Made by a program: the position numbers and the translations under genes
Part shown: piece after piece, positions 1,775 to 34,404 of the stretch
How the letters are laid out: every line of letters starts with the position of its first letter
Numbering within the stretch: position 1 is the stretch's first letter
The notes under the pieces: model-generated
The model's input: the letters and a program-made list of their open reading frames with translations, nothing else
Told to the model about the DNA's origin: nothing
Database searches by the model: none
DNA from: a virus
Lineage: Duplodnaviria; Caudoviricetes
IMG/VR virus record: IMGVR_UViG_3300020045_019627
Location: 1-61,395 of that record
Length of the DNA: 61,395 bases
Direction: 5' to 3' (one strand)

Positions 1775-2266
1775 CTATTTTGAAGTAGGCTGTAGACCAC
1801 GCCCTAAGTGCTTCGGTCGCCCCCTTCCGTACTTGTACTTTCCTTCCTTCTTGGCGCGTTCGATCCCTATGACTTGCTTCTCTCGCATGTCTTCCGGCAT
1901 GTAGCAGCTCACCGCCATCTTCATTCGAAACATGAGACGACCGCTTGCATTGCTCAAGTCAACACTGTCACTCATGCTTAAGAGATTGCATGAGCCACTA
2001 AACTCTTTCTCAAGTCTTGCCTGATCTTCCCAATTCCTCGTCAAACGATCTATGTTATAGACCACCACCGCATCAAAAGACAATAAGTTATCAAGGATCT
2101 TCTTGAACTTCTTCCGTTCCATCAAAGGCAGGCGGCCAGATTCTTCATCAGCAACAGCCCACACAGCACTCCAACCCATACGCTCGGCGTAATCTTTGAG
2201 CTTATCCAGTTGTTGCCTTACATTCTGATCATCCGTGCTCACTCTCGCATATAGACAAACTTTCAA
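1775..2266 (-). CDS. Small serine recombinase (resolvase/invertase family)
   Basis: YARVSTDDQ catalytic Ser motif, DRLTR, GIERAKKEG..GRP; TTG start. Confidence 0.95.
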   Translation of the reverse strand: MKVCLYARVSTDDQNVRQQLDKLKDYAERMGWSAVWAVADEESGRLPLMERKKFKKILDNLLSFDAVVVYNIDRLTRNWEDQARLEKEFSGSCNLLSMSDSVDLSNASGRLMFRMKMAVSCYMPEDMREKQVIGIERAKKEGKYKYGRGRPKHLGRGLQPTSK

Positions 2267-2366: not shown

Positions 2367-2522
2367 TTATTTACATACTGCTTTTGCAAGCGGATCCCAT
2401 ATGAACCAATCATCAGGCATAGAGTAGCGGTTGACAAGACCTTCTTCTTCGAGTTCTCGCATTGTTTCGTGGTATACAGCCCAGGAGACGAACAATATGA
2501 TAGGAACAAAATACCACTTCAT
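2367..2522 (-). CDS. Small membrane-anchored protein (51 aa)
   Basis: Hand-translated MKWYFVPIILFVSWAVYHE...; ATGA overlap. Confidence 0.6.
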   Translation of the reverse strand: MKWYFVPIILFVSWAVYHETMRELEEEGLVNRYSMPDDWFIWDPLAKAVCK

Positions 2523-2662
2523 TCTTTTTCAACCTCTCTTATGATGTATTCAGCTAATTGTTTCCAGTGCATATCAACCCAATTCTCACCGTCCCAATCA
2601 GGTTCACCAGCAGTATGACAAGCAGTCTCTATCTTTGCTTTCAACTCATCAGACAAGAGCTT
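2517..2662 (-). repeat. 146-bp exact repeat, inverted relative to 40654-40799
   Basis: Reverse complement matches 40654-40799 base for base. Confidence 0.97.
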
Positions 2663-2665
2663 CAT
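2519..2665 (-). CDS. 48-aa protein identical after the start Met to 40645-40797
   Basis: MKLLSDELKAKIETACHTAGEPDWDGENWVDMHWKQLAEYIIREVEKE. Confidence 0.8.
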   Translation of the reverse strand: MKLLSDELKAKIETACHTAGEPDWDGENWVDMHWKQLAEYIIREVEKE

Positions 2666-2892
2666 TCTTCTACCTCATGAATTGAATATGCTTTAGCACA
2701 AAAGTTGCAAACATATTTTCCATCGTATCGTAGTATAATACTTCTCCGTTTACATGAAGGACAACCATATAAGGTTTTTTTATGGTGCTGCCATTGAAAT
2801 CGTTCTGTTCTTTCACCCGCCCACCAACCAACACCAAAAGCCAGACAAATACAGAATGCCCAAACAATAAGTTTAAATAGTTCATCAGTCAT
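2662..2892 (-). CDS. TM-anchored Zn-ribbon protein
   Basis: N-terminal TM; CPSC...CNFC. Confidence 0.7.
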   Translation of the reverse strand: MTDELFKLIVWAFCICLAFGVGWWAGERTERFQWQHHKKTLYGCPSCKRRSIILRYDGKYVCNFCAKAYSIHEVEE

Positions 2893-3190: not shown

Positions 3191-3616
3191 TCATCTTTGC
3201 CTCTTCTTTTCTTTGATTTTCTTGAGTGCTTTGAATAGTTCTGCGAAGCAATACCAGATGAATACGACAAGGTAGATTATGGGTATTGCTGCCGTCAGTA
3301 TCCAGAAAAAAAAGAGTACTTTTGCCAAAAATAAATAGTTATATTCTGGATTTTCATAACCATAATCCATTGCATATTTTCCCCCTTCAATGGTTGTAAA
3401 TATAAGAAAATCTGCATACTTGTAGATAATCCTCACTGGAAGGGTAATATTGACATTGCTCACCATATCATCAATGTTGGAGTTTGCCATTATATAGGAA
3501 TATGAAACTTTACTTTTCGTATTAGTAAACTCATCAGGTGTTTGTCCCGACTGATGAACTGCAGCACCGAAACTAAGAAATAACAGTATCATCAGAATTA
3601 TAATGCGCCATATCAT
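3191..3616 (-). CDS. Membrane protein
   Basis: N-terminal signal/TM, C-terminal TM and basic tail. Confidence 0.75.
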   Translation of the reverse strand: MIWRIIILMILLFLSFGAAVHQSGQTPDEFTNTKSKVSYSYIMANSNIDDMVSNVNITLPVRIIYKYADFLIFTTIEGGKYAMDYGYENPEYNYLFLAKVLFFFWILTAAIPIIYLVVFIWYCFAELFKALKKIKEKKRQR

Positions 3617-3852
3617 GAATGTTCACCATATAACATGACCACCATTGCCCCATTCGTGAGCTGACTAATCTCGTAGCGATACCACTTCAACTTGACCTTT
3701 TCAGTGGAGAGTTCTTGCCATATCTCATCTTTGGCCTTCTGGATCATCTTCTCATACTGATTGATCCGCAAGCCCATGAAGTTCCTAATACTGGCGAGAA
3801 TATCTGTGATAAACGACCGCGATACCACCCGAACTTTCATAACCTCATTCAT
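3613..3852 (-). CDS. YbjQ/UPF0145-like protein
   Basis: SRSFITDILASIRNFMG...YEKMIQKAKDE and MVVMLYG match the YbjQ pattern. Confidence 0.7.
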   Translation of the reverse strand: MNEVMKVRVVSRSFITDILASIRNFMGLRINQYEKMIQKAKDEIWQELSTEKVKLKWYRYEISQLTNGAMVVMLYGEHS

Positions 3853-3977
3853 ACCTTCACACTCCAAAACTGTGGCTTCCTCCTGCTGTAGGCCTTATTG
3901 CAAAATTCGCAGTAGTCTATATAGCGAGTATTCCGTGCCATAGCATCACCATGAACCGGGCACTTTTTAGTATTCAT
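3849..3977 (-). CDS. Zn-finger microprotein
   Basis: Hand-translated KKCPVHG...YCEFCNKAY; ATGA overlaps at both ends. Confidence 0.55.
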   Translation of the reverse strand: MNTKKCPVHGDAMARNTRYIDYCEFCNKAYSRRKPQFWSVKV

Positions 3978-4021
3978 AGTTCTTCTACCCCTTTGTACTG
4001 CTTATACCAATTATGATAGAG
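3973..4021 (-). repeat. 49-bp exact repeat, inverted relative to 39866-39914 (3' end of homologous genes)
   Basis: ctctatcataattggtataagcagtacaaaggggtagaagaactatgaa occurs in both elements. Confidence 0.93.
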
Positions 4022-4210
4022 TGCATAGGTCTCGCTGTACCCAGTAAGACGTTCCAGCTGCAAAACATACAAGAACTCATCTTCCAAAATACTCCTCTTC
4101 CTCTCAACCATCTTCAAAACATCAGGATAACTCTTATACCGAGTCATGTTCTTCTTGATAGTCTCAAGATTATAAACAATACGACCAAGATGAACATGCG
4201 CTTCTCTCAT
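3974..4210 (-). CDS. Hypothetical protein, homologue of 39668-39913
   Basis: Last 29 aa identical to the element A gene. Confidence 0.8.
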   Translation of the reverse strand: MREAHVHLGRIVYNLETIKKNMTRYKSYPDVLKMVERKRSILEDEFLYVLQLERLTGYSETYALYHNWYKQYKGVEEL

Positions 4211-5325: not shown

Positions 5326-7203
5326 ATGGTTAATGCCGGAAGCCATACCACAATGACTCTCTACGACGAAATAAAAGCACGACAACTAGAAGCCGGAATA
5401 ACAAAGACATCATTTTACATATGCCAATCATGTGCTGAAATAACTGAAAGCGCCGACTATACAGACAAATGCCACAGTTGCCAATACCAAGGAGCACTCA
5501 TAGAACGAAGCACCATCGAACGAGCAACAGAAGCACAAGAACAAGTACGCGAGAATATCAAGGAGAGAATAGAAAACAGTAAGATACCAGTCAACCTTGT
5601 TGGCACAGTAGAAAGTATCGCTAACGATATAGTCATCGAGGAAACAAGACAAGAACTAAAAATTAATCTAGCGAAAGGCAAATGGTTACGACGAGGAGCA
5701 GAAATCATAATAGAACACAACCCAATATATTTTGATCAAACAGAAACATGGTGGGTCTGGAACCACCAAAAAAAAAGCTGGGAAGAGAAAGACGAGACTG
5801 ACATCTTAAACCTTTGCCACCACACCCTAGAATTAGTTGGCGACACTAGCATAAGACACAGTAACCTCTTACTCAAAGCACTACAACAAGTAGGCAGACA
5901 AAAACAACCCAAAGAACTACCACTAGAAATGATCCAATGTAGCACAAAAATTATTAATATAAAGACAATGGAACAAACCGAGAGCACACCAGAATATTTT
6001 AGTACCAATCCTATTCCTTGGGAACTGGGGAAGACAACAAACACCCCAATACTTGATGAATTAATTACGAGTTGGATCGGCAAAGAATTACTCAATACAA
6101 TGTATGAGATAATAGCCTATACATTATATCGAGAGTATCCTATCCACCGTGTCTTTTGTTTTGTTGGCAGCGGCAGTAATGGGAAAAGCAGAGTATTCAA
6201 AATCATTGATAAGTTTCTTGGTGGAAACAACAAGAGTAGCGTCAGCCTAAAAAAATTAAGTGGTAATGACTTTGCAATCTATCCACTCTATCGGAAGCTT
6301 ATCTGTTATGTTGGGGAGACAAGTCACCACGCACTAGAGAGCACAGAGATCATCAAAAGCCTTAGCGGGCAAGACCCGGTGAGTTTTGAAGGAAAAGGAA
6401 AGAATAGCTTCACTGGTTACAACTATGCAAAACTCTTTCTTGGGACAAACATGCTCCCCCCCAGTACTGATAATAGCAGGGGATGGTACCGTCGTTGGTT
6501 TATCATTAACTTCCCGCATGAGTTCCCCGAGGGTGAGGATGTTTGCAATCGTATTACTGATGAGGAATATTCTTGTTTGTTAACAAAATGTCTTAGTTTA
6601 TTGCCTGCGTTATTGCAGCGTGGTAATTTTAGTACTGAAGGGACGATTGAGGAGCGTCAGGCGAAGTATATTGCTAATAGCAATCCGTTTAAGGAGTATC
6701 TTGATTTGTGGTATGATCGTGATACCAATAGTAGTGTTCGCTATGGGGAGTTGTATAATGAATATTTGTCCTTTCTTTCTGAGCGAAAGTTACGACGTAT
6801 TAGTTACAAAGAGTTCCGTACTAGTTTGGAAGATCAGGGGTTGGAAATGCATAAGTCTGGGGTTCGGGAGGCTGATGGTAGTACTACGAGTTTTAATGTT
6901 GTTTTGGGTTTGAAGCGTTTGCCGAAGCAGCGTTGTTTTACCGTTTTATCTGTTTTACCGGGGTCCTACTCTGTTCCAGATCATATTTTTAGTATAGTAG
7001 AGAGTACAAACACGATAAAACAGATAAAACAAATAAAACAGGATAAGATGGAAAGGTTTTTCTCGTGGATAAATGATGGTGAAAAGGGCATGCGCGATAT
7101 TATTTCTATAGAAAAGATATGGCCTGATATAGCATGGGAGACCTTGATTGCACATGGAGAATTGTATGAACCACTGCCAGGCTACCTAAAAACTCTTTCC
7201 TAA
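5326..7203 (+). CDS. D5/P4-type SF3 helicase with N-terminal Zn finger; no visible primase domain (start may be 5353)
   Basis: Walker A GSGSNGKS, LICYVGE, motif C KLFLGTN, WYRRWFIINF; CQSC...CHSC. Confidence 0.9.
   Translation: MVNAGSHTTMTLYDEIKARQLEAGITKTSFYICQSCAEITESADYTDKCHSCQYQGALIERSTIERATEAQEQVRENIKERIENSKIPVNLVGTVESIANDIVIEETRQELKINLAKGKWLRRGAEIIIEHNPIYFDQTETWWVWNHQKKSWEEKDETDILNLCHHTLELVGDTSIRHSNLLLKALQQVGRQKQPKELPLEMIQCSTKIINIKTMEQTESTPEYFSTNPIPWELGKTTNTPILDELITSWIGKELLNTMYEIIAYTLYREYPIHRVFCFVGSGSNGKSRVFKIIDKFLGGNNKSSVSLKKLSGNDFAIYPLYRKLICYVGETSHHALESTEIIKSLSGQDPVSFEGKGKNSFTGYNYAKLFLGTNMLPPSTDNSRGWYRRWFIINFPHEFPEGEDVCNRITDEEYSCLLTKCLSLLPALLQRGNFSTEGTIEERQAKYIANSNPFKEYLDLWYDRDTNSSVRYGELYNEYLSFLSERKLRRISYKEFRTSLEDQGLEMHKSGVREADGSTTSFNVVLGLKRLPKQRCFTVLSVLPGSYSVPDHIFSIVESTNTIKQIKQIKQDKMERFFSWINDGEKGMRDIISIEKIWPDIAWETLIAHGELYEPLPGYLKTLS
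6934..7040. repeat. Inverted iteron arrays, candidate replication origin
   Basis: Three YGTTTTAYC-like units facing three RATAAAACA units across an AT-rich spacer. Confidence 0.6.
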
Positions 7204-7514: not shown

Positions 7515-7961
7515 TCAGATGTTCATCATTTCTCTAAAGCCAGGGCTCATCATTGCTATGATAAATAGCAATACCGCCAGTGCGATAAAAATCACAACCA
7601 AACTTAAAGTACTACGACTTGTCGAATCACCAACGTCCCGATAGATATACGTCACAAAGAACGTGCCATTACGATTAACACTCGTAACAGTACCTTGTGA
7701 TAAACTAAACGTATAGTTCGCAGGAGCAGTCAACAATGACCCACCAGTACTATTTTTAATACTGGTAATGCTGTCCAGCTGATTCTTCGTCAAGCTCACG
7801 GTAGCACCATTTGCCACCCAATTAATACTTTCGTTTGTTATGGTATTTGCTTGTGTAGCACTTGTTACAGAATTAGCAATCATCTGAGTGAAAACAATTC
7901 CCAATATGAGTAACACAAATCCTACTACTAGCATCCCAAGCAATGTTTTGTTTTCTGCCAT
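7515..7961 (-). CDS. Putative major capsid protein, spindle-virus type
   Basis: Hydrophobic helices at both termini around a beta-rich insert with N-x-S/T sequons; strong GGAGGTG RBS. Confidence 0.6.
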   Translation of the reverse strand: MAENKTLLGMLVVGFVLLILGIVFTQMIANSVTSATQANTITNESINWVANGATVSLTKNQLDSITSIKNSTGGSLLTAPANYTFSLSQGTVTSVNRNGTFFVTYIYRDVGDSTSRSTLSLVVIFIALAVLLFIIAMMSPGFREMMNI

Positions 7962-7988
7962 TTTATTTTTCTCACCTCCACCCGGTCA

Positions 7989-8288
7989 CTACAGGCGTGT
8001 TCTTTCAAAATACCGCATGACTGGCGGTTTCTTGAATGTGTGTCGTTGTTGCTCATCAGGCGATAGATGATTAATCCCATCATCAAATGCCTTACGAGAC
8101 TGTAGTTGTTGATAATTGTTTATTTGTTGTCGCAAATAACGTTTCCGTTCTTCATTGAGCTGTGCTTGTCGTTGTCGTTCAAGCCCATCGAGTTGTTTAT
8201 CACCAACTTCTCTAGGTCCTAATCTAGGATCGCGAGCATATAATGCTTTAGTTGTCGCAACTTTTCGTAGTACATCAAATACTTTCAT
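7989..8288 (-). CDS. Basic hypothetical protein
   Basis: ORF track; operon position. Confidence 0.7.
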   Translation of the reverse strand: MKVFDVLRKVATTKALYARDPRLGPREVGDKQLDGLERQRQAQLNEERKRYLRQQINNYQQLQSRKAFDDGINHLSPDEQQRHTFKKPPVMRYFERTRL

Positions 8289-8578
8289 GATCGTTTCACC
8301 ACCTTACTCATAGAGACATAACCTAATACTCCGATGAACAGTACAATTAATGCGAGCAATAAGACATCATAAGCATAACCTATGACCATTAAACAAAAAG
8401 CGATAATAAGTGTAATGGTGACTTCTATAGGAGCACGATGTTGTAAGCTAAGATAAGCAATGACTGTGATACCAACAAAGAGTGCTAGTATAACACTACC
8501 AAATAACTCATTAAATATGATGTTGCCTAAGTCTAGATAGTTTTGTGGTGTGATCATGGATTCACCCCACGCCACCAT
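8285..8578 (-). CDS. Three-TM membrane protein (virion/assembly)
   Basis: Hydrophobic helices; follows the adhesin cluster. Confidence 0.75.
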   Translation of the reverse strand: MVAWGESMITPQNYLDLGNIIFNELFGSVILALFVGITVIAYLSLQHRAPIEVTITLIIAFCLMVIGYAYDVLLLALIVLFIGVLGYVSMSKVVKRS

Positions 8579-8976
8579 TCAAGAACGCTAACAAAATACA
8601 TGATGAGCAGCGGCCCGAAGATAAGAACTGCAATCACGCCACCAATAGCGCTAGTGGCATTAATAGTTTGGTAAATGCTTAAGAAGTCCCATCCGAAGCC
8701 AAAGAAGATGGTAGCAATAGGGCCAAGTATCCAGAAGTCACTATTAACGCTACGACTCAAGAAGACGCTCACGACTTGACCGACCATTGCTAAGAGTCCG
8801 AGCACCCCGAAAACTGATAGCCATAGTGGGGTCGTTTTGAAATTTGTAGGATTAAGTGCTAGCGTTAATAGTGCACTATTTGGCGTGTTCTGGAGTAGCC
8901 CGGTGAAATAAAATAATAGTGTCACACCACTCATCATTCCTAACCAAGTAATCATCTTGCTCATGTGACATTCCAC
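8554..8976 (-). CDS. Multi-TM membrane protein (virion/assembly)
   Basis: About four hydrophobic helices. Confidence 0.75.
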   Translation of the reverse strand: MECHMSKMITWLGMMSGVTLLFYFTGLLQNTPNSALLTLALNPTNFKTTPLWLSVFGVLGLLAMVGQVVSVFLSRSVNSDFWILGPIATIFFGFGWDFLSIYQTINATSAIGGVIAVLIFGPLLIMYFVSVLEWWRGVNP

Positions 8977-11636
8977 CTACGATATACTGTGATAATAGTG
9001 ATTGTTCCTACAAGAAGGCTGACGATATACATTTGTATTACTTCTGGCGCACCAGTCATAGTAGTGATCCGTAAGAATCCTAAATAACTTACGATCAGTG
9101 TAAGACCAAGGACCAGTATGAGAGCGTTTTCTGGCGAGCTGAGAGCATCGAACTTGCTTGTTGCTCCTAAAGTAATCACTGCGATGAAGATGAACGCGAG
9201 GAATAATCTGCTGAAATCATTAAACCCGCTACTGTTGAAGCTTCTGACATCTTGAACCCAGTTATACAGGCTATAATCAGAATCATAAGCGTTGCTGATG
9301 GGATAGCTCCAATTATATGTGTTGATGAACGTATCTGTTGTTATCGTACCAGAAGCAATGATAGTACCGTTTTGCGGGAGATTTATTGTGATAGTTGGTC
9401 CAGTACTGGTTGTGCAAAATGTTGAGTTCGACCCGAGGATAACTCCATTTGTCAAATTAGTAAGCACGAGAGAACAACTCGTGATATTCCAGTAAGAACT
9501 TGTAATATTAAAACCAAACGTTACTATCGTCCCATTAGTAACTGCTGATTGCGGAGTGAAATAATACAATACCCCCGTCTGTTGTGTCACGGCATCAGTA
9601 TTATTAGCAAATAAACCAAACGTCCGATACCATAAGCCATCAGCCTGTATGAGTAAGAGTTCTGGCGTCGTAGTGTTAAACCGTGTAATATCATTAACCA
9701 CTACTTCCCACGTATAGAATCCAGTAACCGCTTCAGCAGTCATTGTAGCACTACCATCAGTCCCGGTAGTGGCCATTTCAACAACATTAGGAATACTACT
9801 ATTACCATAAGATCGTTTAAGTTTGATAATCGCTCCTATGACAAGACTGGTATCAAAGTTTCTGATCTCAACAATACCAGGAGTATACAAGGTACTAGGG
9901 ATCATGTACAACGACAGGTTTTGTGTAGCGAACCCCAAAGTGAAATAGTATTCTCTACTACTATAACCGCTAGCACTATAACGGATTGTATAATCACCAG
10001 CGGGTAATGTACCAACAATATTGCTCTGACCATTCGTAGTATTATAATTGGTTTCTGTGTTGTTAGCATCAACAATCGTAAACTGAATGTTTGTTCCTGT
10101 GATTATTGTTCTGTTCTGTTCATCAAGAAATAATAGTCCAACAGTGAGTGCTTGAAGTGTACCATTATATGAGTCATTAGCTCCAAGAATTAATCGATTG
10201 GTCGCGTTAGAACGATAGCTGCTCTTCGTGATATTAATAGAATAATTATACCCTCGTAACAACGGCAATACAACGCTGTTATTACTTCCTGACCCAGTAG
10301 TATACAGTGTCCCGCCAAGTGTAGAATTAAAAACCTGAACTGTGAAATCATTGAGCGAGGTGATGCCATCGTTCGCGCCAACAGTTAAGCGCGTGTCATA
10401 TATTCCTGTTGCGTTACAATTAACCGTTTGTAATGGTCCTGGAACAGTGCAAGTAATATTAACTGAGTAATTACCAGCGACCTGAATTGTGATAGTGTTT
10501 GAACCAGTTAAAGCTTTAATGATAAGCTGGCCAGTACTTGTCGTGTTTGTTGTCCCATTGTTACTAGCGTTAAAGCTACTGATGGTGGTGTTGAGAAAGA
10601 GGCGTAATGCTTGGAGATTAATAACTGCTTGGTGTGCACTTTGACTGATTGATACTGGAGTAGTAATTATTTGTGTTACTGAAGTGTTAAAGAACGTGCT
10701 TGTACCACTACCCCCTGTGCAGTTACTTCCCGTTCCATTACCAGTATATGCTACACAGAACCCAGTATCTGTGATGTTAAAATAGGTAAAGGTGAGATTG
10801 CCATAGATATTCCAGAACGATAATGTTCCAATAGTGGCGTTCGTAATATTATTTATTAGTGTAAAATTGTTAGATGGTAGTCTAGTATCGTAGACATAGT
10901 TGCAGCTTACTCCCGTTGTACTATTGTAAAGAAAGCTGATATCTGCTGGTGTGAGTGCTGCATTGAAGATCATTACTTCATCGATTGCACCGTCAAATTC
11001 TCCGAAGCTAGCATTGTTAATGTATTGTCCTATCCAGTAAGTGTTGCTGCTTCTATTGAGCGGTAGTGTTTGTATCCTGCTAAATCGTTGTGTACCATTG
11101 AAGTAAGTAGTTATATTGCGATTGCTATGATTATAAGTAACGGCGCTATGATACCAAACAGCAGTAGTAGTGTTGACTCCAATAATTGTGTCACTCCCAC
11201 CGCCATCTGCAAAAGTAATGGGATTATTCAAACCTGAAACGCCAACATAAAGCATTGCTGCACTATCAGCTTGTACACTGCCAAGACTGCTATAGAACTG
11301 ATTTGCTCCCGCATCAACAGAGTCAAGAAGATGCCAAGTTACAATGGTAAAGTCTGTATCACCAATCGGTATCTGGCTTTGGTTAGCAACATAACGGAAG
11401 TTTGTGTTATCATCGTTTGGGGCATCGTAAGCATTCGCTCCTACTTTTCCCGCTCTAACGCCTGGCGATCCCGCGCTAGTAAAGTCAAAGTTTCCTACTA
11501 CAGTGTTCTGGTTAGCGACTGCTTCGTCAGCACTATAACACATAATGAGGTTATCACCTAGTGCTGCAGCAATACTTCCTTGAATCGTAAATAAGAATAA
11601 TAATGCACTAATAACGATTAGGAAATACTTTTTCAT
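8961..11636 (-). CDS. Secreted LamG-domain adhesin with C-terminal TM helices (VP4-like receptor-binding protein)
   Basis: Signal peptide; LamG motifs WYHSAVTY and FDGAIDEVMIFNAALT; many sequons; three C-terminal TMs. Confidence 0.8.
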   Translation of the reverse strand: MKKYFLIVISALLFLFTIQGSIAAALGDNLIMCYSADEAVANQNTVVGNFDFTSAGSPGVRAGKVGANAYDAPNDDNTNFRYVANQSQIPIGDTDFTIVTWHLLDSVDAGANQFYSSLGSVQADSAAMLYVGVSGLNNPITFADGGGSDTIIGVNTTTAVWYHSAVTYNHSNRNITTYFNGTQRFSRIQTLPLNRSSNTYWIGQYINNASFGEFDGAIDEVMIFNAALTPADISFLYNSTTGVSCNYVYDTRLPSNNFTLINNITNATIGTLSFWNIYGNLTFTYFNITDTGFCVAYTGNGTGSNCTGGSGTSTFFNTSVTQIITTPVSISQSAHQAVINLQALRLFLNTTISSFNASNNGTTNTTSTGQLIIKALTGSNTITIQVAGNYSVNITCTVPGPLQTVNCNATGIYDTRLTVGANDGITSLNDFTVQVFNSTLGGTLYTTGSGSNNSVVLPLLRGYNYSINITKSSYRSNATNRLILGANDSYNGTLQALTVGLLFLDEQNRTIITGTNIQFTIVDANNTETNYNTTNGQSNIVGTLPAGDYTIRYSASGYSSREYYFTLGFATQNLSLYMIPSTLYTPGIVEIRNFDTSLVIGAIIKLKRSYGNSSIPNVVEMATTGTDGSATMTAEAVTGFYTWEVVVNDITRFNTTTPELLLIQADGLWYRTFGLFANNTDAVTQQTGVLYYFTPQSAVTNGTIVTFGFNITSSYWNITSCSLVLTNLTNGVILGSNSTFCTTSTGPTITINLPQNGTIIASGTITTDTFINTYNWSYPISNAYDSDYSLYNWVQDVRSFNSSGFNDFSRLFLAFIFIAVITLGATSKFDALSSPENALILVLGLTLIVSYLGFLRITTMTGAPEVIQMYIVSLLVGTITIITVYRRWNVT

Positions 11637-11995
11637 CGCAGTTGTTCTCCTTGTCGGTCAGCGCACTGTTCGTTGTGTTCGTAATTGTATCTGTTGAGTC
11701 TTTGTTCTTCACAGATTAAGTGTCCTAGTTCGTGTTTAAGAATAGTAATATAATTCTCTCGTTGCCAGGTTTGTTGGTAAATACTGATACGTCGTGGTTT
11801 GTACCAAGCATAAGCATCATAATACTTATGATTATAAGGCTGAAGATCAATACGATACACGATTTGTTCTATGTTGTTATTAATAATGATAGTCCTGGCA
11901 GTCGTTCTTGCTTCTGGAGTACCACCAGTAATGATTGTCGCATGTACTGGGTTAGTCAGTAATAGTCCTACTGCTAAGATCATTAGTAGTCTCAT
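11633..11995 (-). CDS. Secreted zincin-like metallopeptidase
   Basis: Signal peptide; ILKHELGH and downstream EQCAD. Confidence 0.7.
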   Translation of the reverse strand: MRLLMILAVGLLLTNPVHATIITGGTPEARTTARTIIINNNIEQIVYRIDLQPYNHKYYDAYAWYKPRRISIYQQTWQRENYITILKHELGHLICEEQRLNRYNYEHNEQCADRQGEQLR

Positions 11996-12258
11996 TGTTG
12001 TTCCGGCAGAGCTCTAATGCCAAAGTACGCGAAAGCAACAGCAAGACAAGCGAGAAGGAATCCCGGTAGGAAACTATCGACGACGATACAGCTCATTTTG
12101 TCACCGGTGCTAATGCTAGTGTTGTTGCAGTCAAGATGGTTAACGTCTCTTCCAATGCCAGTAACATCTTTTAATGGCTCAATAAGAACCACAGCGGTAA
12201 TGAATACTAGAAAAGCCATCATAATACCATACATGATAAGAGTACCTCGTCGATTCAT
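11992..12258 (-). CDS. Two-helix membrane protein with pilin-like leader; candidate second capsid protein
   Basis: MNRRG leader, two hydrophobic helices and a Cys pair in the loop. Confidence 0.55.
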   Translation of the reverse strand: MNRRGTLIMYGIMMAFLVFITAVVLIEPLKDVTGIGRDVNHLDCNNTSISTGDKMSCIVVDSFLPGFLLACLAVAFAYFGIRALPEQQ

Positions 12259-12596
12259 GGCGAGCCTCCACGACCAAAAAATCTTGTTTTTACTTCGCAT
12301 AAGGTCATTCGTTTAGGATTAATAATTGGTTCTGGTAGAGGGTATTCTTTTTTTCCAGGATTGAGTTGTTGCTTCAGACGTTTTTTAGAATACTTGTTTG
12401 TTCGTTGAAGAATCTTTTGAATTCTAATAACCGGTGTAAATCTCAGGTTATATCTTCTACCTGATAGTTTCTTTTGTTCTGCGTTTTTATTTAGTTCTTC
12501 TCTCAGTGCAAGTTTAATATTTTGTCTTTCTGCATCGCTTTGCGGTATTATCTTTTTCAATGCTGAGTAATAATCAGATTGTTTTTTTATCGCCAT
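12255..12596 (-). CDS. Basic hypothetical protein
   Basis: ORF track; K/R-rich. Confidence 0.65.
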   Translation of the reverse strand: MAIKKQSDYYSALKKIIPQSDAERQNIKLALREELNKNAEQKKLSGRRYNLRFTPVIRIQKILQRTNKYSKKRLKQQLNPGKKEYPLPEPIINPKRMTLCEVKTRFFGRGGSP

Positions 12597-15500
12597 AAAA
12601 ATCTCCCTCCTTTGTTCTTTGAAGCGGTTAGCTCTGTTCTCTCTGCGCGAGTAACCAAACGTTGTCCGCGACGCTGAATGAACTCATCCTTTAACGGTAT
12701 TCGCTTACCAGCCTGTATCTTATACGAGCGAAAAACTTTATCATTGATTCGCGCATCAATATCGCTAACAGTAGTCCTACCACTCGGCAAGAGCTTAAAT
12801 CTCGCGCCAAGACCGCCAAGCGCCGCTGTTTGACCAGCGAGGAGGGCGCGACCACGAGGAAGATTACTAGCGACTCGTAAGAACTTCTTACGACGCTTCA
12901 AGAAGACATCAAACCCTTCAGCATCTAATAATTTCCTTCTTTTTTGATCGATAGTGATACTATCTTGTGTCTGGGGTTTTTGAGTAATGCTGCGTTGTAA
13001 AATATATTGAATATTCTTCGTAGAAGTAATGCTGCGTTGTAAAATATTTTGAATATTCTTTTGAACACTCGATTGAATATTATTCTGAACATTTTGCTGA
13101 ATATTACTCTGAATGTTTTTTTGAATGTTAAATTGATTCTGCCGAGTAACACTACTACTATTCTGGACGCTTCTCATGCTCGTGCGCTGGTCATTAAGAA
13201 GGTTTGATTGTGGAACAAAAACATTCTTAGTACTAATAACATTATTAGTAGAATATTGTAACCCCGTTCTTGTAGCAAAAGATGGTTCCGTTCTTGTAGC
13301 AGAAGATGGTTCTTCAGCAAAGGAACGACCAGTATTAAAAAACGATGGATAATACCTTGTTACAGGAGTACGGAACGTTCTCACTCCAACAACAACCCTC
13401 TCGCCAGGCTTCACTGTAGTATACTCATAACCACTCAAATCAATATTAGGAGTCTGATCAGTAATAGACTTCTGACTCTGAAAAACTTGTCGGAGTCCAA
13501 CATTATCCTGAAACGCAGTACTACCACCGATTGGACTAGTAGGCTTCAGACTCTCCGATGTCTCTTTTCTAATCTGAGAACGCGGGGTCTGTTTTCGATT
13601 CTCTGCTTTTCTTGGCGACAAGAACTTTCTTTCAGATTTAATAATAAAATACTCTCTAGGAGCTCTCAAACTAAAGATAGGAGTCTTCTTCTTATTCTTT
13701 AATGTAAAGCTAATTAAATTCTTAGGCACTTTCACAGCAATAATATATTGCTTTGTAAGATCGCTAGTTCCTCCACCATACTTTGTTGTATCAATAATTT
13801 TCTTTGGTATTTTACCACTTGCATCAATAGAAGAAAGCTTAGTATCCCTAGGACGATAGATACCGGTAACAATACTACCACTGCCTTCTTTACTGAAAAC
13901 AAAACTCTTGACTGGTGTCTTTGATCGGTCAAGATTTTCTGTCACATCAGTAAATGTTTGTAAAGTCTTCTTATTGTACTGACGATTAGCAACGAGTGCT
14001 TTATTCATGTTGAATGATAATTCTTTTGACAAAAGAATATCTTTTTTTATTGGTGTGAATATGTCTAGCTCATAGCTTGGCTTGGTAATGGTTATATCAC
14101 TGAACGGTTTTTCTCCTCGGGGGAAGTCAAACTTTATTCTGCTTGCAGCACTGCGTATGACAAAGAGATCTTCAATCACCGGTTCGGGTATTCTCTTTGA
14201 TGGCTTCACCGGCTCAGTGGTTCTCACCAGACTCCGAAATGATACTGCGCGATCAGCACTTAGTGCACCATACTTCTCATCGGGAACACTCAACGATTTC
14301 TTGTTGCTTACAATAACACGCCCACGATTATCAACCACCGGATTATAATAATCATCAAGACCTTTAGCAATACTATCAGAAATAACATCTATCTTTACTA
14401 ACCTAACTTTTGTTTGAGAAGTTACTGGACTACCAAAGATTTTCTGTGGCTTACCAAACAATGTTTTTACATCATAAATCTTTTTCTCACTAATAATTCG
14501 CGGACTAGGTAATAGACCACCAAGCTCTCCATCAAGCTCTGGTACTTCACCATATCCCATACCAGTATTCTGAAACTGCTTTGTACCAGCACTACCGATA
14601 GTAAACTCTTGCGGGCCTAATGGATTAATTGTCTTAGCGTCTTCAGGTAACACTCTTGGGGTGAACTTGTCAAAGAACAACCCACCACTAATACCACGAG
14701 ATCCTATCTGTTCATTACGTTGAAAGAGATTATCAACAACGCTCTGTTGTGCACCAAGAAGATCTTGCTTTTTCAAGTATGCTGCGGGACTAAGTTCTTG
14801 TAATTTAACATTTCTATTTTGTTGTATAGGTTTGAAAAAAGGAAAAGTTGTTGGTGCACTAAGTCTTGGTATATCCGTAAATGGAAAACCGTACTGCGGT
14901 TGGGCACGACTCTGTGGCACACTCGTAACAACTTTGGTCTGTTGTGGTGTAAAGATCTTTTGATCTGGGGGGGTAAGGTAGAAATCTCTTGGTGCATTGA
15001 AAGGAGTGTACTTGGCATAATCTAGATTCTTGATGATCACTGTTGCAGGAGTAATACTTACTTGCTGTATTGTTCGCGGCGAAAGAAGATTGTACTCTGT
15101 TTTTCCTGGTTGCTTAAACAAGTTCCTCATTGTAACAACGGTTCCTATGCTACCTCCTCCTTCGGCTGGCTTCGCAACATCAACAATCTTACCAAAACCA
15201 CTACCAAACGGCTCGGCAATAGTGCTCTGACTATTAAGCTGTATATTCAAGAAGCTTGGTTCTGCACTCCGTTCCATTTCGTACCTCGCGCGATTACCAA
15301 TAAGAGGATATGGTTTTCCTTCTTTAGCAATAATACTTTCTTGAAACGTGGCAATACCACCACCACGAAGCTTTTGGACATTACCACCCTTCACAAAGAA
15401 TTCAAGAGCTCCATCAGCAGGGCTAAGATACTTACCAACAAGATCCATTTTAACACCAGCAAACTCTTGAGGAACAACCATCGTCTTGCCAGGCAATACT

Positions 15501-16888
15501 TTCCCAATCGCATAACCACCGATAAGCTTGCCTACACCGCGAGGGTTTTGCAATGCGTTTCCAATACCAGCAACAGTGCTTACTGTAAACTCAGGCAGGC
15601 TGGTACCCAAGTGTACTGTTCTCTCAAAATTCTCATTACTCTGTCCACGAAAGAGATTTTCTACTCTCGCAGCTCCTTCACCAATAAGTGCTTGACCGCC
15701 ACCAATACCAAGAACAGTTGTGTCACTAGCAAAGGACAGGATTCCAGCACCAACGTTTGCACCCAACGCAAGACCGGTCTCTACGGCTTTAGCATAGTTC
15801 TTATTAGAAAGATATGTCTTCTCCTCAAAAAGAAGTTGTTTGAAACTTTTATCCGGTAAACTAAATGCATAAGAATAAGAATCATTGGTTGTTTTTAATC
15901 CTTTTCCTATTCTTTCTCTGGCATCTTCGATAATTTTTTGTCCAAACGGTACGACGCTAACTTTTTTTGTATACCCAAAATTAGTAATAGACCTAATTCC
16001 ACTATCTTGCCCGAATTTTATGGCATCTTCGATAATTTTTTGTCCAAGCGGTCCGACGCTAACTTCTTTCGGTGACGTACCCAGAGTATACCCAAAGTTA
16101 TTAGTAGAACTAATCCCACTACCTTGCCCAAATCCCTTGGTGAATCCATCATTGAGCTGATATGGTCCCACTTCTTTATATGTTTTTGTTTCTGAAATAG
16201 ATAACGGAGTAGCAAGCCTCGGTAAGTATTCTCTGGGGGTGTTGCCGTATTGTCCTTTGACTGTTTTTATTCCTCCGCTTGCGGTTCCTACTCCTGATTG
16301 TACTAATACAAGACTTCCTTGTTGTATTCCTTGTTTGCTACCAGTAATGCTGGGATTGCCAGTATTGTAGATTCCTGATGGGGTGCTCGCTTGGTATACT
16401 CCTCTGTTGGAGTAATAGCCGACAGTTGGTCCACTTTTTGTTCCTGTGGTGGTAGTAATTCCTCCTCCGGTTAGGCTTGTTGGACTGGAGTATCTGATAC
16501 CAGCATCGGGGTTTGGTGGTGGACTACTCAGGTAGGTGCGGGAGTCTTTTGGTGCTGTTTGTTTCGCACTATCATATTGACTGCCTAGTCGTTGTTGTAT
16601 CTGGTCTAGTTCTCGTAGTTCACTATCAAGTTCTTGCTGTAATGTTGGAATGCTGGCGAGGTTCTTTCCTGTTTCTAGACGATAAGCGATCTTTGATTGT
16701 AATGCACCAATGTTTTTTTCTTTGATATTAATACCGCTGCCGATCTTGCGTAGTTCTTGTTGTCCGTAATTAATTGTTGGCGCACTCGGAGATGGTGCTG
16801 ATTGTCCGCTCATAGTAGTTGTGGTGAACATCTCCTTTAGTTGTTGTGGGTTCCGTTGAAGTAGACGTCGTTGTTGTTGTGTTACCAT
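12587..16888 (-). CDS. Very large (1433 aa) low-complexity basic protein of unknown function
   Basis: Long ORF; internal repeats, Q/N-rich tract and R/K-rich C-terminal domain. Confidence 0.85.
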   Translation of the reverse strand: MVTQQQRRLLQRNPQQLKEMFTTTTMSGQSAPSPSAPTINYGQQELRKIGSGINIKEKNIGALQSKIAYRLETGKNLASIPTLQQELDSELRELDQIQQRLGSQYDSAKQTAPKDSRTYLSSPPPNPDAGIRYSSPTSLTGGGITTTTGTKSGPTVGYYSNRGVYQASTPSGIYNTGNPSITGSKQGIQQGSLVLVQSGVGTASGGIKTVKGQYGNTPREYLPRLATPLSISETKTYKEVGPYQLNDGFTKGFGQGSGISSTNNFGYTLGTSPKEVSVGPLGQKIIEDAIKFGQDSGIRSITNFGYTKKVSVVPFGQKIIEDARERIGKGLKTTNDSYSYAFSLPDKSFKQLLFEEKTYLSNKNYAKAVETGLALGANVGAGILSFASDTTVLGIGGGQALIGEGAARVENLFRGQSNENFERTVHLGTSLPEFTVSTVAGIGNALQNPRGVGKLIGGYAIGKVLPGKTMVVPQEFAGVKMDLVGKYLSPADGALEFFVKGGNVQKLRGGGIATFQESIIAKEGKPYPLIGNRARYEMERSAEPSFLNIQLNSQSTIAEPFGSGFGKIVDVAKPAEGGGSIGTVVTMRNLFKQPGKTEYNLLSPRTIQQVSITPATVIIKNLDYAKYTPFNAPRDFYLTPPDQKIFTPQQTKVVTSVPQSRAQPQYGFPFTDIPRLSAPTTFPFFKPIQQNRNVKLQELSPAAYLKKQDLLGAQQSVVDNLFQRNEQIGSRGISGGLFFDKFTPRVLPEDAKTINPLGPQEFTIGSAGTKQFQNTGMGYGEVPELDGELGGLLPSPRIISEKKIYDVKTLFGKPQKIFGSPVTSQTKVRLVKIDVISDSIAKGLDDYYNPVVDNRGRVIVSNKKSLSVPDEKYGALSADRAVSFRSLVRTTEPVKPSKRIPEPVIEDLFVIRSAASRIKFDFPRGEKPFSDITITKPSYELDIFTPIKKDILLSKELSFNMNKALVANRQYNKKTLQTFTDVTENLDRSKTPVKSFVFSKEGSGSIVTGIYRPRDTKLSSIDASGKIPKKIIDTTKYGGGTSDLTKQYIIAVKVPKNLISFTLKNKKKTPIFSLRAPREYFIIKSERKFLSPRKAENRKQTPRSQIRKETSESLKPTSPIGGSTAFQDNVGLRQVFQSQKSITDQTPNIDLSGYEYTTVKPGERVVVGVRTFRTPVTRYYPSFFNTGRSFAEEPSSATRTEPSFATRTGLQYSTNNVISTKNVFVPQSNLLNDQRTSMRSVQNSSSVTRQNQFNIQKNIQSNIQQNVQNNIQSSVQKNIQNILQRSITSTKNIQYILQRSITQKPQTQDSITIDQKRRKLLDAEGFDVFLKRRKKFLRVASNLPRGRALLAGQTAALGGLGARFKLLPSGRTTVSDIDARINDKVFRSYKIQAGKRIPLKDEFIQRRGQRLVTRAERTELTASKNKGGRFLWR

Positions 16889-17016
16889 TGGAAATCAGAC
16901 TGTTTGATCGTCACGGTTTTCGGAGGGTTTTTTAAGAATGGCATGATCTTTTTTGAGAGGAGGATGCTGCATTGCCCGTTTTTTTTGTTGTAGAATACTT
17001 TAGTGGTGATGTTCAT
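16882..17016 (-). CDS. AbrB-like microprotein (44 aa)
   Basis: Hand-translated TKVFYNKKNGQCSILLSKK. Confidence 0.5.
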   Translation of the reverse strand: MNITTKVFYNKKNGQCSILLSKKIMPFLKNPPKTVTIKQSDFQW

Positions 17017-17082
17017 ACAGTTGTTAGCGCTGTCCTCGGGCGATCTTTTTACTGTAAAACCGATTATATAAAACTATGCTAT

Positions 17083-17331
17083 TCAGATATTAAACTTTTG
17101 CTGCAGAATAGCCAACGCCTGATCAAGATTCTCCCTGCTAGCACGAGGATTCTTCGTATACAACCCGCCCAATAACTTCATTATCTCATCAATACGCTTC
17201 GTATCATGCAACGGGACAACAATCTCAAAAACATAATCCCTACTAGAGTATTGTTCTAAAAAGATAATCTTTAAGAAACGACCCTGCCCAAGATGACGTT
17301 TCTTACGTTTCATACTCTCACCTAACCCCAA
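17083..17331 (-). CDS. Hypothetical protein
   Basis: ORF track; operon position. Confidence 0.6.
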   Translation of the reverse strand: MGLGESMKRKKRHLGQGRFLKIIFLEQYSSRDYVFEIVVPLHDTKRIDEIMKLLGGLYTKNPRASRENLDQALAILQQKFNI

Positions 17332-17900
17332 ATCCTACTAATCAAGTAGATAATAGCTCCTATCACCAACACCCAAATGATCCATGACATGCTCATCTTC
17401 TTTTTTATGCCATCCTTATCTAACTCTGCTTGTTCTATCTGACGAACAATAGTTAACTGTCCATGTTTGTGAATACCGGTTTGTTTTAATGCTTCTTCAC
17501 TTGTCTTACCACCAAGGATTAATGCTTCGTATTCTTCAGCGTCACCACCGCCAGGCAGTAATCGCCAACTGAATAATATGATAATAGGATAACGTTTCTT
17601 CTTTATCTTTAATTGAAAGATCGCCTTTTCTTCATAAGCATAAGCATCACGTTGTCCTGTCGTCTTAATCGTCTTGTCATCAATATACCATAGTCCACTA
17701 CGGGCAAAGGCAGTTTTGAATTCCGCGCTACGATTAGGACTGATCCATAATGCAATAACTTTGGAGGAGTCATTATCGACTATACGGAGTAGTTTTTTTG
17801 GTATACGAAACTTCCAGCCTATATTCTTTTTCTTATTAATCTGTTCTTCAATAGCGTGGATCTTCTTTTCGTTCTCTTCTACTTTGTCAACAATGCTCAT
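17322..17900 (-). CDS. C-terminally membrane-anchored protein
   Basis: C-terminal TM WIIWVLVIGAIIYLI. Confidence 0.8.
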   Translation of the reverse strand: MSIVDKVEENEKKIHAIEEQINKKKNIGWKFRIPKKLLRIVDNDSSKVIALWISPNRSAEFKTAFARSGLWYIDDKTIKTTGQRDAYAYEEKAIFQLKIKKKRYPIIILFSWRLLPGGGDAEEYEALILGGKTSEEALKQTGIHKHGQLTIVRQIEQAELDKDGIKKKMSMSWIIWVLVIGAIIYLISRIWG

Positions 17901-18109
17901 GGTGATCGCTCTCTGAAATTCTTGAATCTAATAATCATACTAACTATAACAGTAAAGAACCCGCAGAGCATTGAAAAGTAAAAGAATGCTCCTTGGGTTG
18001 TTGTCGCAACAGCAAAGTATCCCGCGCTAGCACCAAGAGGCACTAGAACTTCATATAGAACATCTCTCAGACTATCTTTCTTTCTTATTATCAAAGGTAA
18101 TTTTTTCAT
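17897..18109 (-). CDS. Two-TM membrane protein
   Basis: Hydrophobic helices; ATGA overlaps. Confidence 0.7.
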   Translation of the reverse strand: MKKLPLIIRKKDSLRDVLYEVLVPLGASAGYFAVATTTQGAFFYFSMLCGFFTVIVSMIIRFKNFRERSP

Positions 18110-18567
18110 GATTCCACTCCTCCTTCAGTAACCACTTTCTTTTCTCCACCGAAGAGTCCTCGCTCAGTGGTTTTTTTCTGTGGGAGAATAGTCCTATTTT
18201 CTCTTCGTACAGTGAATAGTATCTCCATAAGCTTTGCTTTCCTTCCCAGCCCTACGATAGCAACATTACCTACTTTGCCTTGTAAGTATTCGCTTACAAA
18301 GCTGTAGTTCTCCGCTTCCGCATAGTGCGCCACCTGTAAGTAAGTAAGTACCGGAGCTTTTGGTTTACCAACTTCCTCATCACGAAAGTTAGCAGTCTTA
18401 GAAAGCTTCTTAGCATTTTCTTGAGCAACAACATCACGAACGAACTGCAATAAGCTATCCTTATTCGGTGGCTCAGGATAGTTACCCATCTGTAACGCAT
18501 AATTCTGGGCCGTTGCCTGAATACGTTGGTCGATGTACTCATCAATCTCTGTTGTCTCGTCAACCAT
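18106..18567 (-). CDS. Hypothetical protein
   Basis: ORF track; operon position. Confidence 0.75.
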   Translation of the reverse strand: MVDETTEIDEYIDQRIQATAQNYALQMGNYPEPPNKDSLLQFVRDVVAQENAKKLSKTANFRDEEVGKPKAPVLTYLQVAHYAEAENYSFVSEYLQGKVGNVAIVGLGRKAKLMEILFTVRRENRTILPQKKTTERGLFGGEKKVVTEGGVES

Positions 18568-18573
18568 GATGTT

Positions 18574-18714
18574 TCACAATAAGTCTTTTAGTTGTTCCCA
18601 TAATTGCTTTAGGCTTATGCCTTTCACATGAGTATAGATAGTTATGCCTATAGCCGTAATGATTCCTATACTGAGAATATCCTGAAAGATATTGTCAAAG
18701 AGTAAGGTGGCCAT
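18574..18714 (-). CDS. Small membrane protein (46 aa)
   Basis: Hand-translated MATLLFDNIFQDILSIGIITAIGITIY; fills the operon gap. Confidence 0.6.
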   Translation of the reverse strand: MATLLFDNIFQDILSIGIITAIGITIYTHVKGISLKQLWEQLKDLL

Positions 18715-18715
18715 A

Positions 18716-19015
18716 CTACCATCGAGTATTCACGTGTTTTATTCCCTGGGTCATAAATAATGGATTAGACAAAAACTCTCTGATGATGTAACGCTCGATG
18801 AATTCTTTTGTATCTTTTTTATGAGGGCAAGTGTATAGTATTGCTTCTCGGAAGTTCTCCCATATCATTCGTTCTTGCGGAGTCTTTGCTTTCTTGATAA
18901 GAACTGTTATTGGAAGCATTTTATTATTTGTATTGTATGATGATATGTATACTTCGTGGTTTTCATCAACCTGTAGCTTCATCATACCTTTCTGTAGTTT
19001 AAAGGTGATAATCAT
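18716..19015 (-). CDS. Hypothetical protein
   Basis: ORF track. Confidence 0.65.
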   Translation of the reverse strand: MIITFKLQKGMMKLQVDENHEVYISSYNTNNKMLPITVLIKKAKTPQERMIWENFREAILYTCPHKKDTKEFIERYIIREFLSNPLFMTQGIKHVNTRW

Positions 19016-19173
19016 AAGAGTTTTCGCTTTAGTTCTTTAACGTCGTTGCGGAGTTCTGCCAGTACTTCCAAAAGGCTTGTTTCTTCGTCGGCATCGTTAA
19101 CGATGGTTTGTCGCCATGTTTCTGGTACTTGTGCTACTTTGAGTGTAGTGGTAGTTTCTTGTTCTTTTGCCAT
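19012..19173 (-). CDS. Small coiled-coil protein (53 aa), first gene of the element B structural operon
   Basis: Hand-translated; TTTAAATA box at 19199-19206 on minus strand. Confidence 0.65.
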   Translation of the reverse strand: MAKEQETTTTLKVAQVPETWRQTIVNDADEETSLLEVLAELRNDVKELKRKLL

Positions 19174-30898: not shown

Positions 30899-31310
30899 TT
30901 TTCACGGCAGCAGCATCATAAACTTGAGAATATTGTTGTGCATGTTTTCTAATGAGCTGGCTAATGTGATCGTGGCTAACTTTGTGAAGGTGTAAATTTA
31001 CACTCTTCTCCCCATATAAATTCTTGTGCAATTTATCGATGAGCTCATTGTAGAGCTCAATGAATCGTCTCGTGCTTTCTTTTATCACTTTTGATTCTCT
31101 AATATCCTCAGCAATGCGCTCATCAAGATATAATTTTATCTTCGCAGCCATCTCCTTCTGTCGCTCAACAGGTTTATCAAAAAGTTCAATAATCTCTTGT
31201 GCTGCTTGTGACGCATTCATAACAGGAATTTCAAGCTCATTTTTCTTCTGTTCCTTCACTTTCTCAAGCGCTTGCTCAATGGTTGCAAAGTCAACAATAT
31301 CCATCGTCAA
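30891..31310 (-). CDS. Putative terminase small subunit
   Basis: Helical 139 aa directly upstream of and overlapping terL. Confidence 0.55.
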   Translation of the reverse strand: MTMDIVDFATIEQALEKVKEQKKNELEIPVMNASQAAQEIIELFDKPVERQKEMAAKIKLYLDERIAEDIRESKVIKESTRRFIELYNELIDKLHKNLYGEKSVNLHLHKVSHDHISQLIRKHAQQYSQVYDAAAVKND

Positions 31311-32671: not shown

Positions 32672-33172
32672 TTACTTTGCGCTGACGACAAAACGGAAGG
32701 AATTATTGATATTGGTTCCAAATTCTTGTGATCCTTTGATATTTAATCGCATGTAACGGAAACTTTTATCACTCACATCAAGACGAGTAAGATTATTAAC
32801 ACAACGGATGTTTCCACCACTGCCATTTATCCAGATGCGATTGTCAGGGCTAACTTCATATTGTATGGTGGTGATGTTGGTGACATTGAGATTTTTTGCA
32901 AAACCACTGCAATTAATCCAAAGCGTATATTCTGTGAACTTACCTAAATCAATAATGCTTGTTGTTTGGTTACTGAAGTTCAAGAGTGTTTGTGCATCAC
33001 CTGTCAGTGTGCCTGTACTTACAACGAACGGAGCAACAAATGTTACATCAGTATTTCCACTAGCAAGTGATGGAGAAGACGTTTCTTTTTGAAAGAAAAG
33101 TGCAATACTTGTTATGATTGAAAGCAAAACTAATATCGCTAAACTTATGTTGATGATGTTGCGTTGTTTCAT
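32672..33172 (-). CDS. Membrane-anchored beta-sandwich protein (spike-base-like)
   Basis: N-terminal TM; IQYEVSPDNRIW...FRYMRL; many sequons. Confidence 0.55.
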   Translation of the reverse strand: MKQRNIINISLAILVLLSIITSIALFFQKETSSPSLASGNTDVTFVAPFVVSTGTLTGDAQTLLNFSNQTTSIIDLGKFTEYTLWINCSGFAKNLNVTNITTIQYEVSPDNRIWINGSGGNIRCVNNLTRLDVSDKSFRYMRLNIKGSQEFGTNINNSFRFVVSAK

Positions 33173-33498: not shown

Positions 33499-33548
33499 GG
33501 TGGTTCACGTTATTTTGTTTATGAGTGTTTTATTATTTGTTGTGTTGT

Positions 33549-33866: not shown

Positions 33867-33868
33867 AA

Positions 33869-34209: not shown

Positions 34210-34363
34210 TATTTAAATGCTTTGATTTATATATGCTGCTTCGAGGGATTTGGATATACTTTGGATTTTTGGGGGAGAAAATATTTGTGGACTACTCTCT
34301 CCTCCACACCCCCTTAAAAGTCACTACCCCCCCGTACTAACACTTAATAGAAAGATTTATATA
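34210..34363. promoter_or_regulatory. Divergent late/early promoter region of element A
   Basis: TTTAAATA on minus strand (34210-34217) ~24 nt before ATG 34186; GAAAGATTTATATA on plus strand (34350-34363); coding strand switches here. Confidence 0.65.
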
Positions 34364-34404
34364 ATCCCATTATAATTATAATAGTATTCTCAACACCTAA
34401 GAAG

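Follow-up and report, generated by a model that had tools for sequence, protein, structure and literature searches.

Morons are extra genes that carry their own promoter and terminator and are inserted between phage genes. The concept is mentioned in a paper on mycobacteriophages (PMC3029335), which also describes single-gene modules in these phages, exchanges that take place near the limits of genes by illegitimate recombination, and short duplications of sequence at the junctions. We analyzed a stretch of viral DNA, called the window in the following, which makes up one whole IMG/VR record (61,395 bp; classed as linear; CheckV completeness 100%), and in which one cassette of 146 nt is found in two places. 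Our preferred reading, held with moderate confidence and built on sequence comparison, is that this cassette is a single-gene mosaic module recently swapped by microhomology-mediated recombination between two tailed viruses, named V1 and V2 here, that are joined in one record.

The cassette resembles the modules of the mycobacteriophages, as PMC3029335 presents them, in being one small gene common to otherwise unrelated contexts with intact neighbors, and the duplication found at its junction likewise points to illegitimate recombination. It differs from what is described there in the probably archaeal nature of the viruses, in its perfect identity, in the presence of both contexts in one, probably composite, record, and in an unusually clean footprint, with a 10-nt repeat lying exactly at an ATGA overlap. 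Like a moron, the cassette is a small accessory gene between two resident genes, and its removal restores the resident junction in V2; unlike a moron, the V2 copy (copy A) overlaps its neighbors by ATGA on both sides with zero intergenic space. As these overlaps leave no room for transcription signals of its own, copy A would be read with the operon, and its lack of flanking intergenic DNA sets it apart from a moron in the strict sense. As a phenomenon, this would be textbook phage mosaicism, unsurprising to a phage genomicist.

A repeat search over the whole window showed that positions 2517-2662 (copy A) and 40654-40799 (copy B) form a perfect inverted repeat, identical at 146/146 nt. A search of the record against itself agreed that exactly two copies are present, at 2517-2662 (+) and 40654-40799 (-), both at 100%, and a 50-nt probe taken from the cassette gave two matches, at 2530-2579(+) and 40737-40786(-), against 0.00 expected from 100 shuffles. 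The two copies are 38 kb apart and show 0 synonymous differences. When they were aligned with about 230 nt of flank per side, identity was at the random level directly outside the 146 nt. These results bear out the preliminary description, which had reported a gene-sized cassette of 146 bp with 100% identity and unrelated flanks, and had placed the identity from just after the start codon to the ATGAAG start of the next gene, covering almost exactly one 48-aa gene, a statement that is correct on the minus strand. In databases, an exact 50-mer of the cassette had no match in IMG/VR, and blastn of the cassette DNA against GenBank phages returned nothing similar.

Copy A belongs to the V2 part and is read on the minus strand, where it encodes a 48-aa ORF (MKLLSDELKAKIETACH..., 2519-2665) whose ATG and TGA both overlap neighboring ORFs. 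Upstream, the stop of a 76-aa ORF (2662-2892, minus strand) overlaps the ATG of the 48-aa ORF in an ATGA, and downstream the TGA of the 48-aa ORF overlaps the ATG of a 51-aa ORF (2367-2522, minus strand) that starts with ATGAAG. The identity begins at the base that follows the ATG (position 2662) and ends 2 nt past the TGA (position 2517). Copy B lies on the plus strand in the early/accessory region of V1 and encodes a 50-aa ORF (MTTKLLSDEL..., 40645-40797), for which an alternative GTG start at 40636 would give 53 aa; in our reading, the AAGGAGTGG ahead of this ORF is a Shine-Dalgarno-like motif. In terms of codons, the cassette starts at codon 2 (AAG) in copy A and at codon 4 (AAG) in copy B, and in both cases it ends 2 nt beyond the stop. 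The ORFs neighboring both copies are intact, and both copies are themselves intact ORFs in phase with their neighbors. The discontinuities thus fall at or near gene boundaries with the adjacent genes preserved, as in a mosaic module.

We also looked at how far the two contexts have diverged outside the cassette. A blastn comparison of positions 1-20217 with positions 20218-61395 gave only three well-scoring segments, namely the cassette (100% over 146 nt), a segment of a fibre-like gene (82% over 219 nt, adjoining 121 exact nt) and a gene called X here (72% over 208 nt); a fourth match, of 25 nt at 96% (E 0.003), is probably due to chance. High identity is thus found in unrelated contexts, and the only two other segments common to both parts are diverged. 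Gene X encodes 78 aa in V2 (3974-4210, minus strand) and 81 aa in V1 (39668-39913, plus strand); the two homologues form an inverted-repeat pair at 72%, of which the last 49 nt are exact and end right at a CTATGAA stop/start overlap. X is upstream of the cassette in both contexts. Downstream, each copy is followed at 250-1230 bp by a gene for a small serine recombinase, of 163 aa in V2 (1775-2266, minus strand; PF00239, E 7e-27) and of 174 aa in V1 (42027-42551, plus strand), and the two recombinases share 31% amino-acid identity. Since homologues of X and of the recombinase are present in both contexts, the order X, cassette, recombinase is old and common to both, but the divergence of the cassette is at most a tenth of that of these neighbors. 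The accessory genes around both cassette copies had no homologues in any relative genome examined.

Both recombinases consist of a resolvase catalytic domain followed by a GRP-type arm, and no recognizable helix-turn-helix or other DNA-binding domain was seen in either of them. A 51-aa AbrB/MazE-like gene (1561-1716) comes directly after the recombinase of V2.

The architecture of the record suggests how two contexts came to stand in one sequence. Its final 121 nt (61275-61395) are identical to an internal stretch at 20218-20338, the two copies being spaced by 41,057 bp, and to the left of the stretch similarity drops to about 90%, then to about 75% and then to random. ORF 59771-61393(-) runs off the record end in phase with ORF 19224-21458(-), and when position 61274 is joined to position 20218, the resulting circle measures 41,057 bp and an uninterrupted ORF of 916 codons crosses the joint. 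We propose that the internal copy at 20218-20338 is both the V2/V1 joint and the closure point of V1, so that V1 would be the 41,057-bp circle at 20218-61274. This circle carries head genes (TerL at 29309-30898, portal at 27054-28526, capsid protein at 25036-27057), early and replication genes at 34250-48488, among them one for an MCM-like helicase (43684-45795), and tail genes at 48605-59518, of which one encodes the tape measure (54060-55346). The proposed V2 fragment (1-20217) contains a D5/P4-type primase-helicase (5326-7203), large structural-like ORFs (7515-19173 and the C-terminal part of a 744-aa ORF) that gave weak tail-related family matches only, small early genes, its own serine recombinase and the AbrB/MazE-like protein.

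Two genomes from IMG/VR served as references for V1, one of 43,560 bp with direct terminal repeats and 100% complete (G001), the other of 42,558 bp and 96% complete (G002). By tblastn at E <= 1e-5, 25 ORFs of the window matched G001 and 24 matched G002, all of them within 24425-59518 and in the same circular order as in those genomes; the matches take in the head genes, a pair of small genes (33169-34186), the early and replication genes with the MCM-like helicase, and the entire tail module with the tape measure. At the same threshold, none of the 41 ORFs of 40 aa or more in 1-24413 matched either genome, and the V2 fragment thus holds no homologue from them; with E relaxed, the ORFs of 1-24413 gave a weak match from a LamG protein only. 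Among 120 listed relatives of the portal protein, 15 come from contigs no shorter than 40 kb, and 14 of these contigs measure 40.2-46.3 kb, so that the spacing of 41,057 bp agrees with the genome size of the relatives (about 43 kb for the family). A division of the record at about 34 kb, into a podovirus-like part A and a siphovirus-like part B, was considered and was overturned by the homology to G001 and G002.

Composition gave a partly similar picture. The tetranucleotide correlation was 0.973 between the two halves of V1, and 0.88 and 0.845 between V2 and each V1 half; in 4-kb windows, the composition switches at 22-24 kb and is ambiguous at 1-6 kb, so the V2/V1 boundary is not fixed by composition. 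Searches for relatives of V2 returned nothing usable: a profile of its primase and its 1433-aa protein were both without match in IMG/VR, where no independent V2-like genome was found, the ESM Atlas gave nothing usable for the 1433-aa protein, and a 71-mer from the shared 121-nt stretch had no match. TerL as a single query had no match in IMG/VR either. On the basis of the 121-nt closure, the pattern of homology to G001 and G002, and the composition, the record is probably composite, a complete V1 circle with a V2 tail of 20.2 kb (a "tadpole"), and in our reading V2 is attached where a homologous fibre-like gene is shared over at least 121 nt. The overlap of 121 nt may correspond to an assembler's k-mer length, as we infer, and an end overlap of this kind would also arise from an assembler halting at a true repeat.

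The preliminary description had spoken of a very recent and precise transfer, with the gene present in both viruses. The first of these statements agrees with an identity of 146/146 nt set against 72% for X, 82% for the fibre-like gene and 31% at the amino-acid level for the recombinases, and with the precise borders. The second holds in that two different viral gene sets are present, and has to be qualified in that both belong to a single record, which is only probably composite, with a boundary near 20.2 kb.

As for the host, TerL finds its best GenBank match in Halogranum tailed virus 1 (22.6% identity), and relatives of the portal protein are found in a Woesearchaeota MAG (36%) and, on a contig of 45.8 kb, in a Methanosarcinaceae MAG (33%). 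Archaeal viruses typically encode many small CxxC proteins. Judging from these sequence relationships, the viruses are probably archaeal.

Several other features of the record were recorded in passing. In V1, four tandem units of 168 nt (56 aa; 63-72% identity) lie at 21838-22575 in a 976-aa ORF that adjoins the head genes, and its product may be a repeat-domain fibre or decoration protein. The capsid gene (25036-27057) encodes 673 aa, with the SU10-type capsid domain confined to residues 428-666; G001 and G002 (ORFs of 691 and 715 aa) also have the long N-terminal part in conserved form, and this part may be a fused scaffold or protease. Immediately upstream of both terminase genes, small and large, a papain-family cysteine protease is encoded (31307-32176; PF00112, E 8e-16). 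Also upstream of the terminase genes are two paralogous small genes (33169-33498 and 33869-34186; 109 and 105 aa, 38% identical), whose homologues in G001 and G002 are located between a 93-aa and a 79-aa gene downstream of the capsid gene, which is a local rearrangement relative to the family. A 141-aa HNH endonuclease ORF (48605-49030) closes the tail module at the point where the tail genes, on the minus strand, meet the early genes, which run towards them on the plus strand. In V2, a protein with a YbjQ_1 (putative heavy-metal-binding) domain is encoded at 3613-3867 among the early genes, and the ORF of 1433 aa contains a 54-nt direct repeat (15914-15967 and 16016-16069; 91% identical, 102 nt apart).

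The borders of the cassette carry short repeats. Copy A is flanked by a 10-nt direct repeat, AAGAATGAAG, on the minus strand, with the upstream copy at 2660-2669, at the junction of the 76-aa and 48-aa ORFs, and the downstream copy at 2517-2526, 143 bp away, at the junction of the 48-aa and 51-aa ORFs. Both repeat copies lie at ATGA stop/start overlaps. The 10-mer occurs four times in the window against 0.27 expected; two occurrences bracket copy A and one is the end of copy B. When the 143 bp were removed in silico, the sequence became ...GTAGAAGAATGAAGTGG..., a normal ATGA junction leading from the 76-aa ORF to the 51-aa ORF. In V1, a 13-nt direct repeat, GAATGAAGCCATT, is present on the plus strand at a stop/start junction (40346-40358) and again 446 bp further on (40792-40804), where it spans the right edge of copy B; these are its two matches in the window (0.14 expected). 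In addition, AAGCTCTTGT, the first 10 nt of the cassette, has three matches against 0.20 expected, one of them at the left edge of copy B and one, an extra copy, at 40384-40393 on the plus strand, 270 bp upstream of copy B.

We propose the following mechanism, which is inferred from this footprint. The microgene would lie in arrays of small, translationally coupled early genes of both viruses, and would have been copied very recently from one context to the other, or from a third virus to both. Copying would have proceeded by microhomology-mediated recombination, either illegitimate or by template switch, with the ATGA stop/start overlaps of adjoining genes as its anchors. In V2, a piece of 143 bp would have been inserted at a resident junction ...GAAGAATGA/ATGAAG..., with duplication of the 10-mer AAGAATGAAG; the exit of the insertion would have been anchored by the 10-nt match and its entry by a 3-nt match, AAG. 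The resident ATG-AAG would then have been re-used as the first two codons of the new gene, giving MK-LLSDE... in V2 as opposed to MTTK-LLSDE... in V1. A duplicated microhomology of 10 nt on one side, with 3 nt shared on the other, is also a likeness to microhomology template switching and illegitimate recombination as known elsewhere. The repeats around copy B show that this region of V1 was rearranged more than once, so the donor may have been V1, V2 or a third virus; we slightly favor the direction from a V1-like virus to V2, since taking the piece out of V1 would leave just a 17-codon ORF.

We also asked what the cassette encodes. An exhaustive HMMER search of 1.84 billion representatives returned eight proteins at E <= 0.001, including the query itself. 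Five of them (P0002-P0005 and P0008; 49-60% identity) have the same core as the 48-aa protein, CHxxGEPxxxGEN...HWKxL, in which C16, H17, G20, E21, P22, G26, E27, N28, H33, W34, K35 and L37 are invariant and kept in 7/7 aligned sequences. P0006 was rejected as a repeat protein with a different residue pattern, and the family as counted here consists of the query and these five relatives, with P0006 and P0007 left out. The five relatives are singletons without names on contigs of 853-2314 bp. A profile of the family gave one match in metagenome contigs (L004, 1221 bp), where the relative is one of a comparable series of small, overlapping ORFs, another of which encodes a CxxC protein, and none in IMG/VR or in genome contigs. 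In the order to which the Methanosarcinaceae MAG (G004) belongs, weak matches were obtained in 3 of 284 genomes (E 0.0013-0.0097 per genome); the two of these that were translated are without H17, N28 and the HWK residues and were counted as chance.

Searches with the single protein returned little. In a word-index search of 5.8 billion proteins the query matched itself only, and there were no family matches in Pfam, PHROGs or NCBIfam; the best match of a PDB profile search had an E of 1.9, Foldseek of the predicted model gave nothing at E <= 0.001 in PDB or BFVD, and the ESM Atlas gave only unnamed viral clusters with a score of 0.90, which is within the Atlas's stated noise. In IMG/VR, the 48-aa protein alone matched just one locus (L003), by a chance-like match of 10 residues. 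An AlphaFold2 model built on a small alignment predicts a helix-loop-helix with a pLDDT of 85.5, in which residues 6-20 and 34-47 are helical and the conserved motif is in the loop. The protein is acidic (pI 4.71, net charge about -6), as are 6/6 family members (pI 4.7-5.6). At the RNA level, the 146 nt matched no Rfam family, and the fold had a z-score of -0.69 and was equalled or surpassed by 45 of 200 shuffles. Considering that five distant relatives keep the invariant core, that the model reaches a pLDDT of 85.5 and that an RNA signal is lacking, the ORF is a real gene, and we conclude that the cassette is a protein-coding microgene of a rare family without a name (48-50 aa). Its members carry the residues CHxxGEPxxxGEN-HWKxL in a predicted helix-loop-helix and form a new small family.

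Other explanations of the two copies have to be weighed against the swap between two viruses. The whole record may exist as a single physical molecule: a genome of at least 61 kb, or a Campbell-type cointegrate for which V1 and V2 recombined in the fibre-like gene. The cassette would then be an intramolecular inverted duplication or the product of gene conversion. We regard this as unlikely. It fits with the record being a single IMG/VR entry with a CheckV completeness of 100%, with a layout exactly as a single crossover in a shared stretch of at least 121 nt would produce it, with the gene order X, cassette, serine recombinase common to both contexts, and with the IMG/VR searches by primase profile and 1433-aa protein, which gave no separate V2-like genome; on the other side, the spacing of 41,057 bp matches the genome size of the family, every ORF with a G001 or G002 homologue falls inside the circle with its order kept, the extra 20 kb adds a second replication protein, a second recombinase and structural-like ORFs, and the tetranucleotide signature of V2 differs. 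An assembly artefact, in which the cassette would exist in one context only, or flanks would have been mispaired through repeat resolution or chimeric reads, seems improbable to us. An exact repeat of 146 nt exceeds usual assembler k-mer sizes and needs read pairs to be resolved, and a record end that exactly copies an internal site is a graph-like feature. Against an artefact, however, the junctions have just 3-10 nt in common, which a k-mer assembler should not be able to invent unless some reads contain them, the flanks of copy B are placed between neighbor genes known from G001 and G002 (the ORF at 38663-39040 and the MCM-like gene) with synteny kept, and each copy is an unbroken ORF that keeps phase with the adjacent ones. 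The swapped isomer, with the segment between the copies inverted, was also considered and was rejected, as it would part genes that are adjacent in G001 and G002.

The identity could also have been kept by selection on DNA or RNA, the cassette being a crossover site of the serine recombinase, a place for homologous recombination of the two replicons, or an RNA with a regulatory role, which we consider very improbable. The small serine recombinase 250-1230 bp downstream of each copy, the inverted orientation of the copies and the zero synonymous differences speak for such selection. Known crossover sites of small serine recombinases are, though, far shorter than 146 nt, and the edges of the cassette fall on the limits of codons and genes and on direct repeats, with no dyad symmetry by eye; moreover, there is no Rfam match, the fold z-score is -0.69, distant homologues keep the protein motif, and the DNA search of GenBank phages was empty. 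An invertible cassette of a serine recombinase does not describe the locus either, as the borders are the direct repeats AAGAATGAAG and GAATGAAGCCATT, no dyad is seen by eye, the copies are 38 kb apart and the recombinases lack a recognizable DNA-binding domain. The recent swap of a single-gene module between V1 and V2 is the reading that we retain at the strength given above.

Concerning function, our guess is that the product acts early as an accessory protein and binds a partner from the host or the virus. An anti-defence role, which the preliminary description had offered as an example, may be considered by analogy from the size, charge and location of the protein, and its acidity (pI 4.7) is at most a weak hint in this direction. 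Like small acidic anti-defence proteins of the anti-CRISPR type, it is tiny and acidic, is encoded in an accessory early array and seems to move horizontally; unlike them, it has no sequence or fold likeness to any named family in Pfam, PHROGs, NCBIfam, PDB or BFVD. A bolder view, which we consider decidedly doubtful, would be that archaeal tailed viruses possess a class of "junction cassettes", small genes ending in a conserved stop/start overlap (GAATGAAG) that acts as a portable recombination linker; with no signals for transcription of their own, such genes would hop in frame from the early operon of one co-infecting virus to that of another. The 48-aa protein, whose conserved loop may hold a Cys/His metal site, would then serve in host takeover or anti-defence and be strongly selected to spread.

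In conclusion, an IMG/VR record presented as one virus, 100% complete, is probably a complete genome of 41 kb together with 20 kb of a second virus. The cassette it carries twice encodes a member of a tiny protein family that is unnamed in any library and counts six distinct members among about 1.8 billion representatives. To our knowledge, few such single-gene trades are described for archaeal tailed viruses. If the swap occurred as we propose, the locus would be a very clean natural example of such a trade, with both contexts, the duplicated 10-nt junction and the re-used resident start codon all visible.
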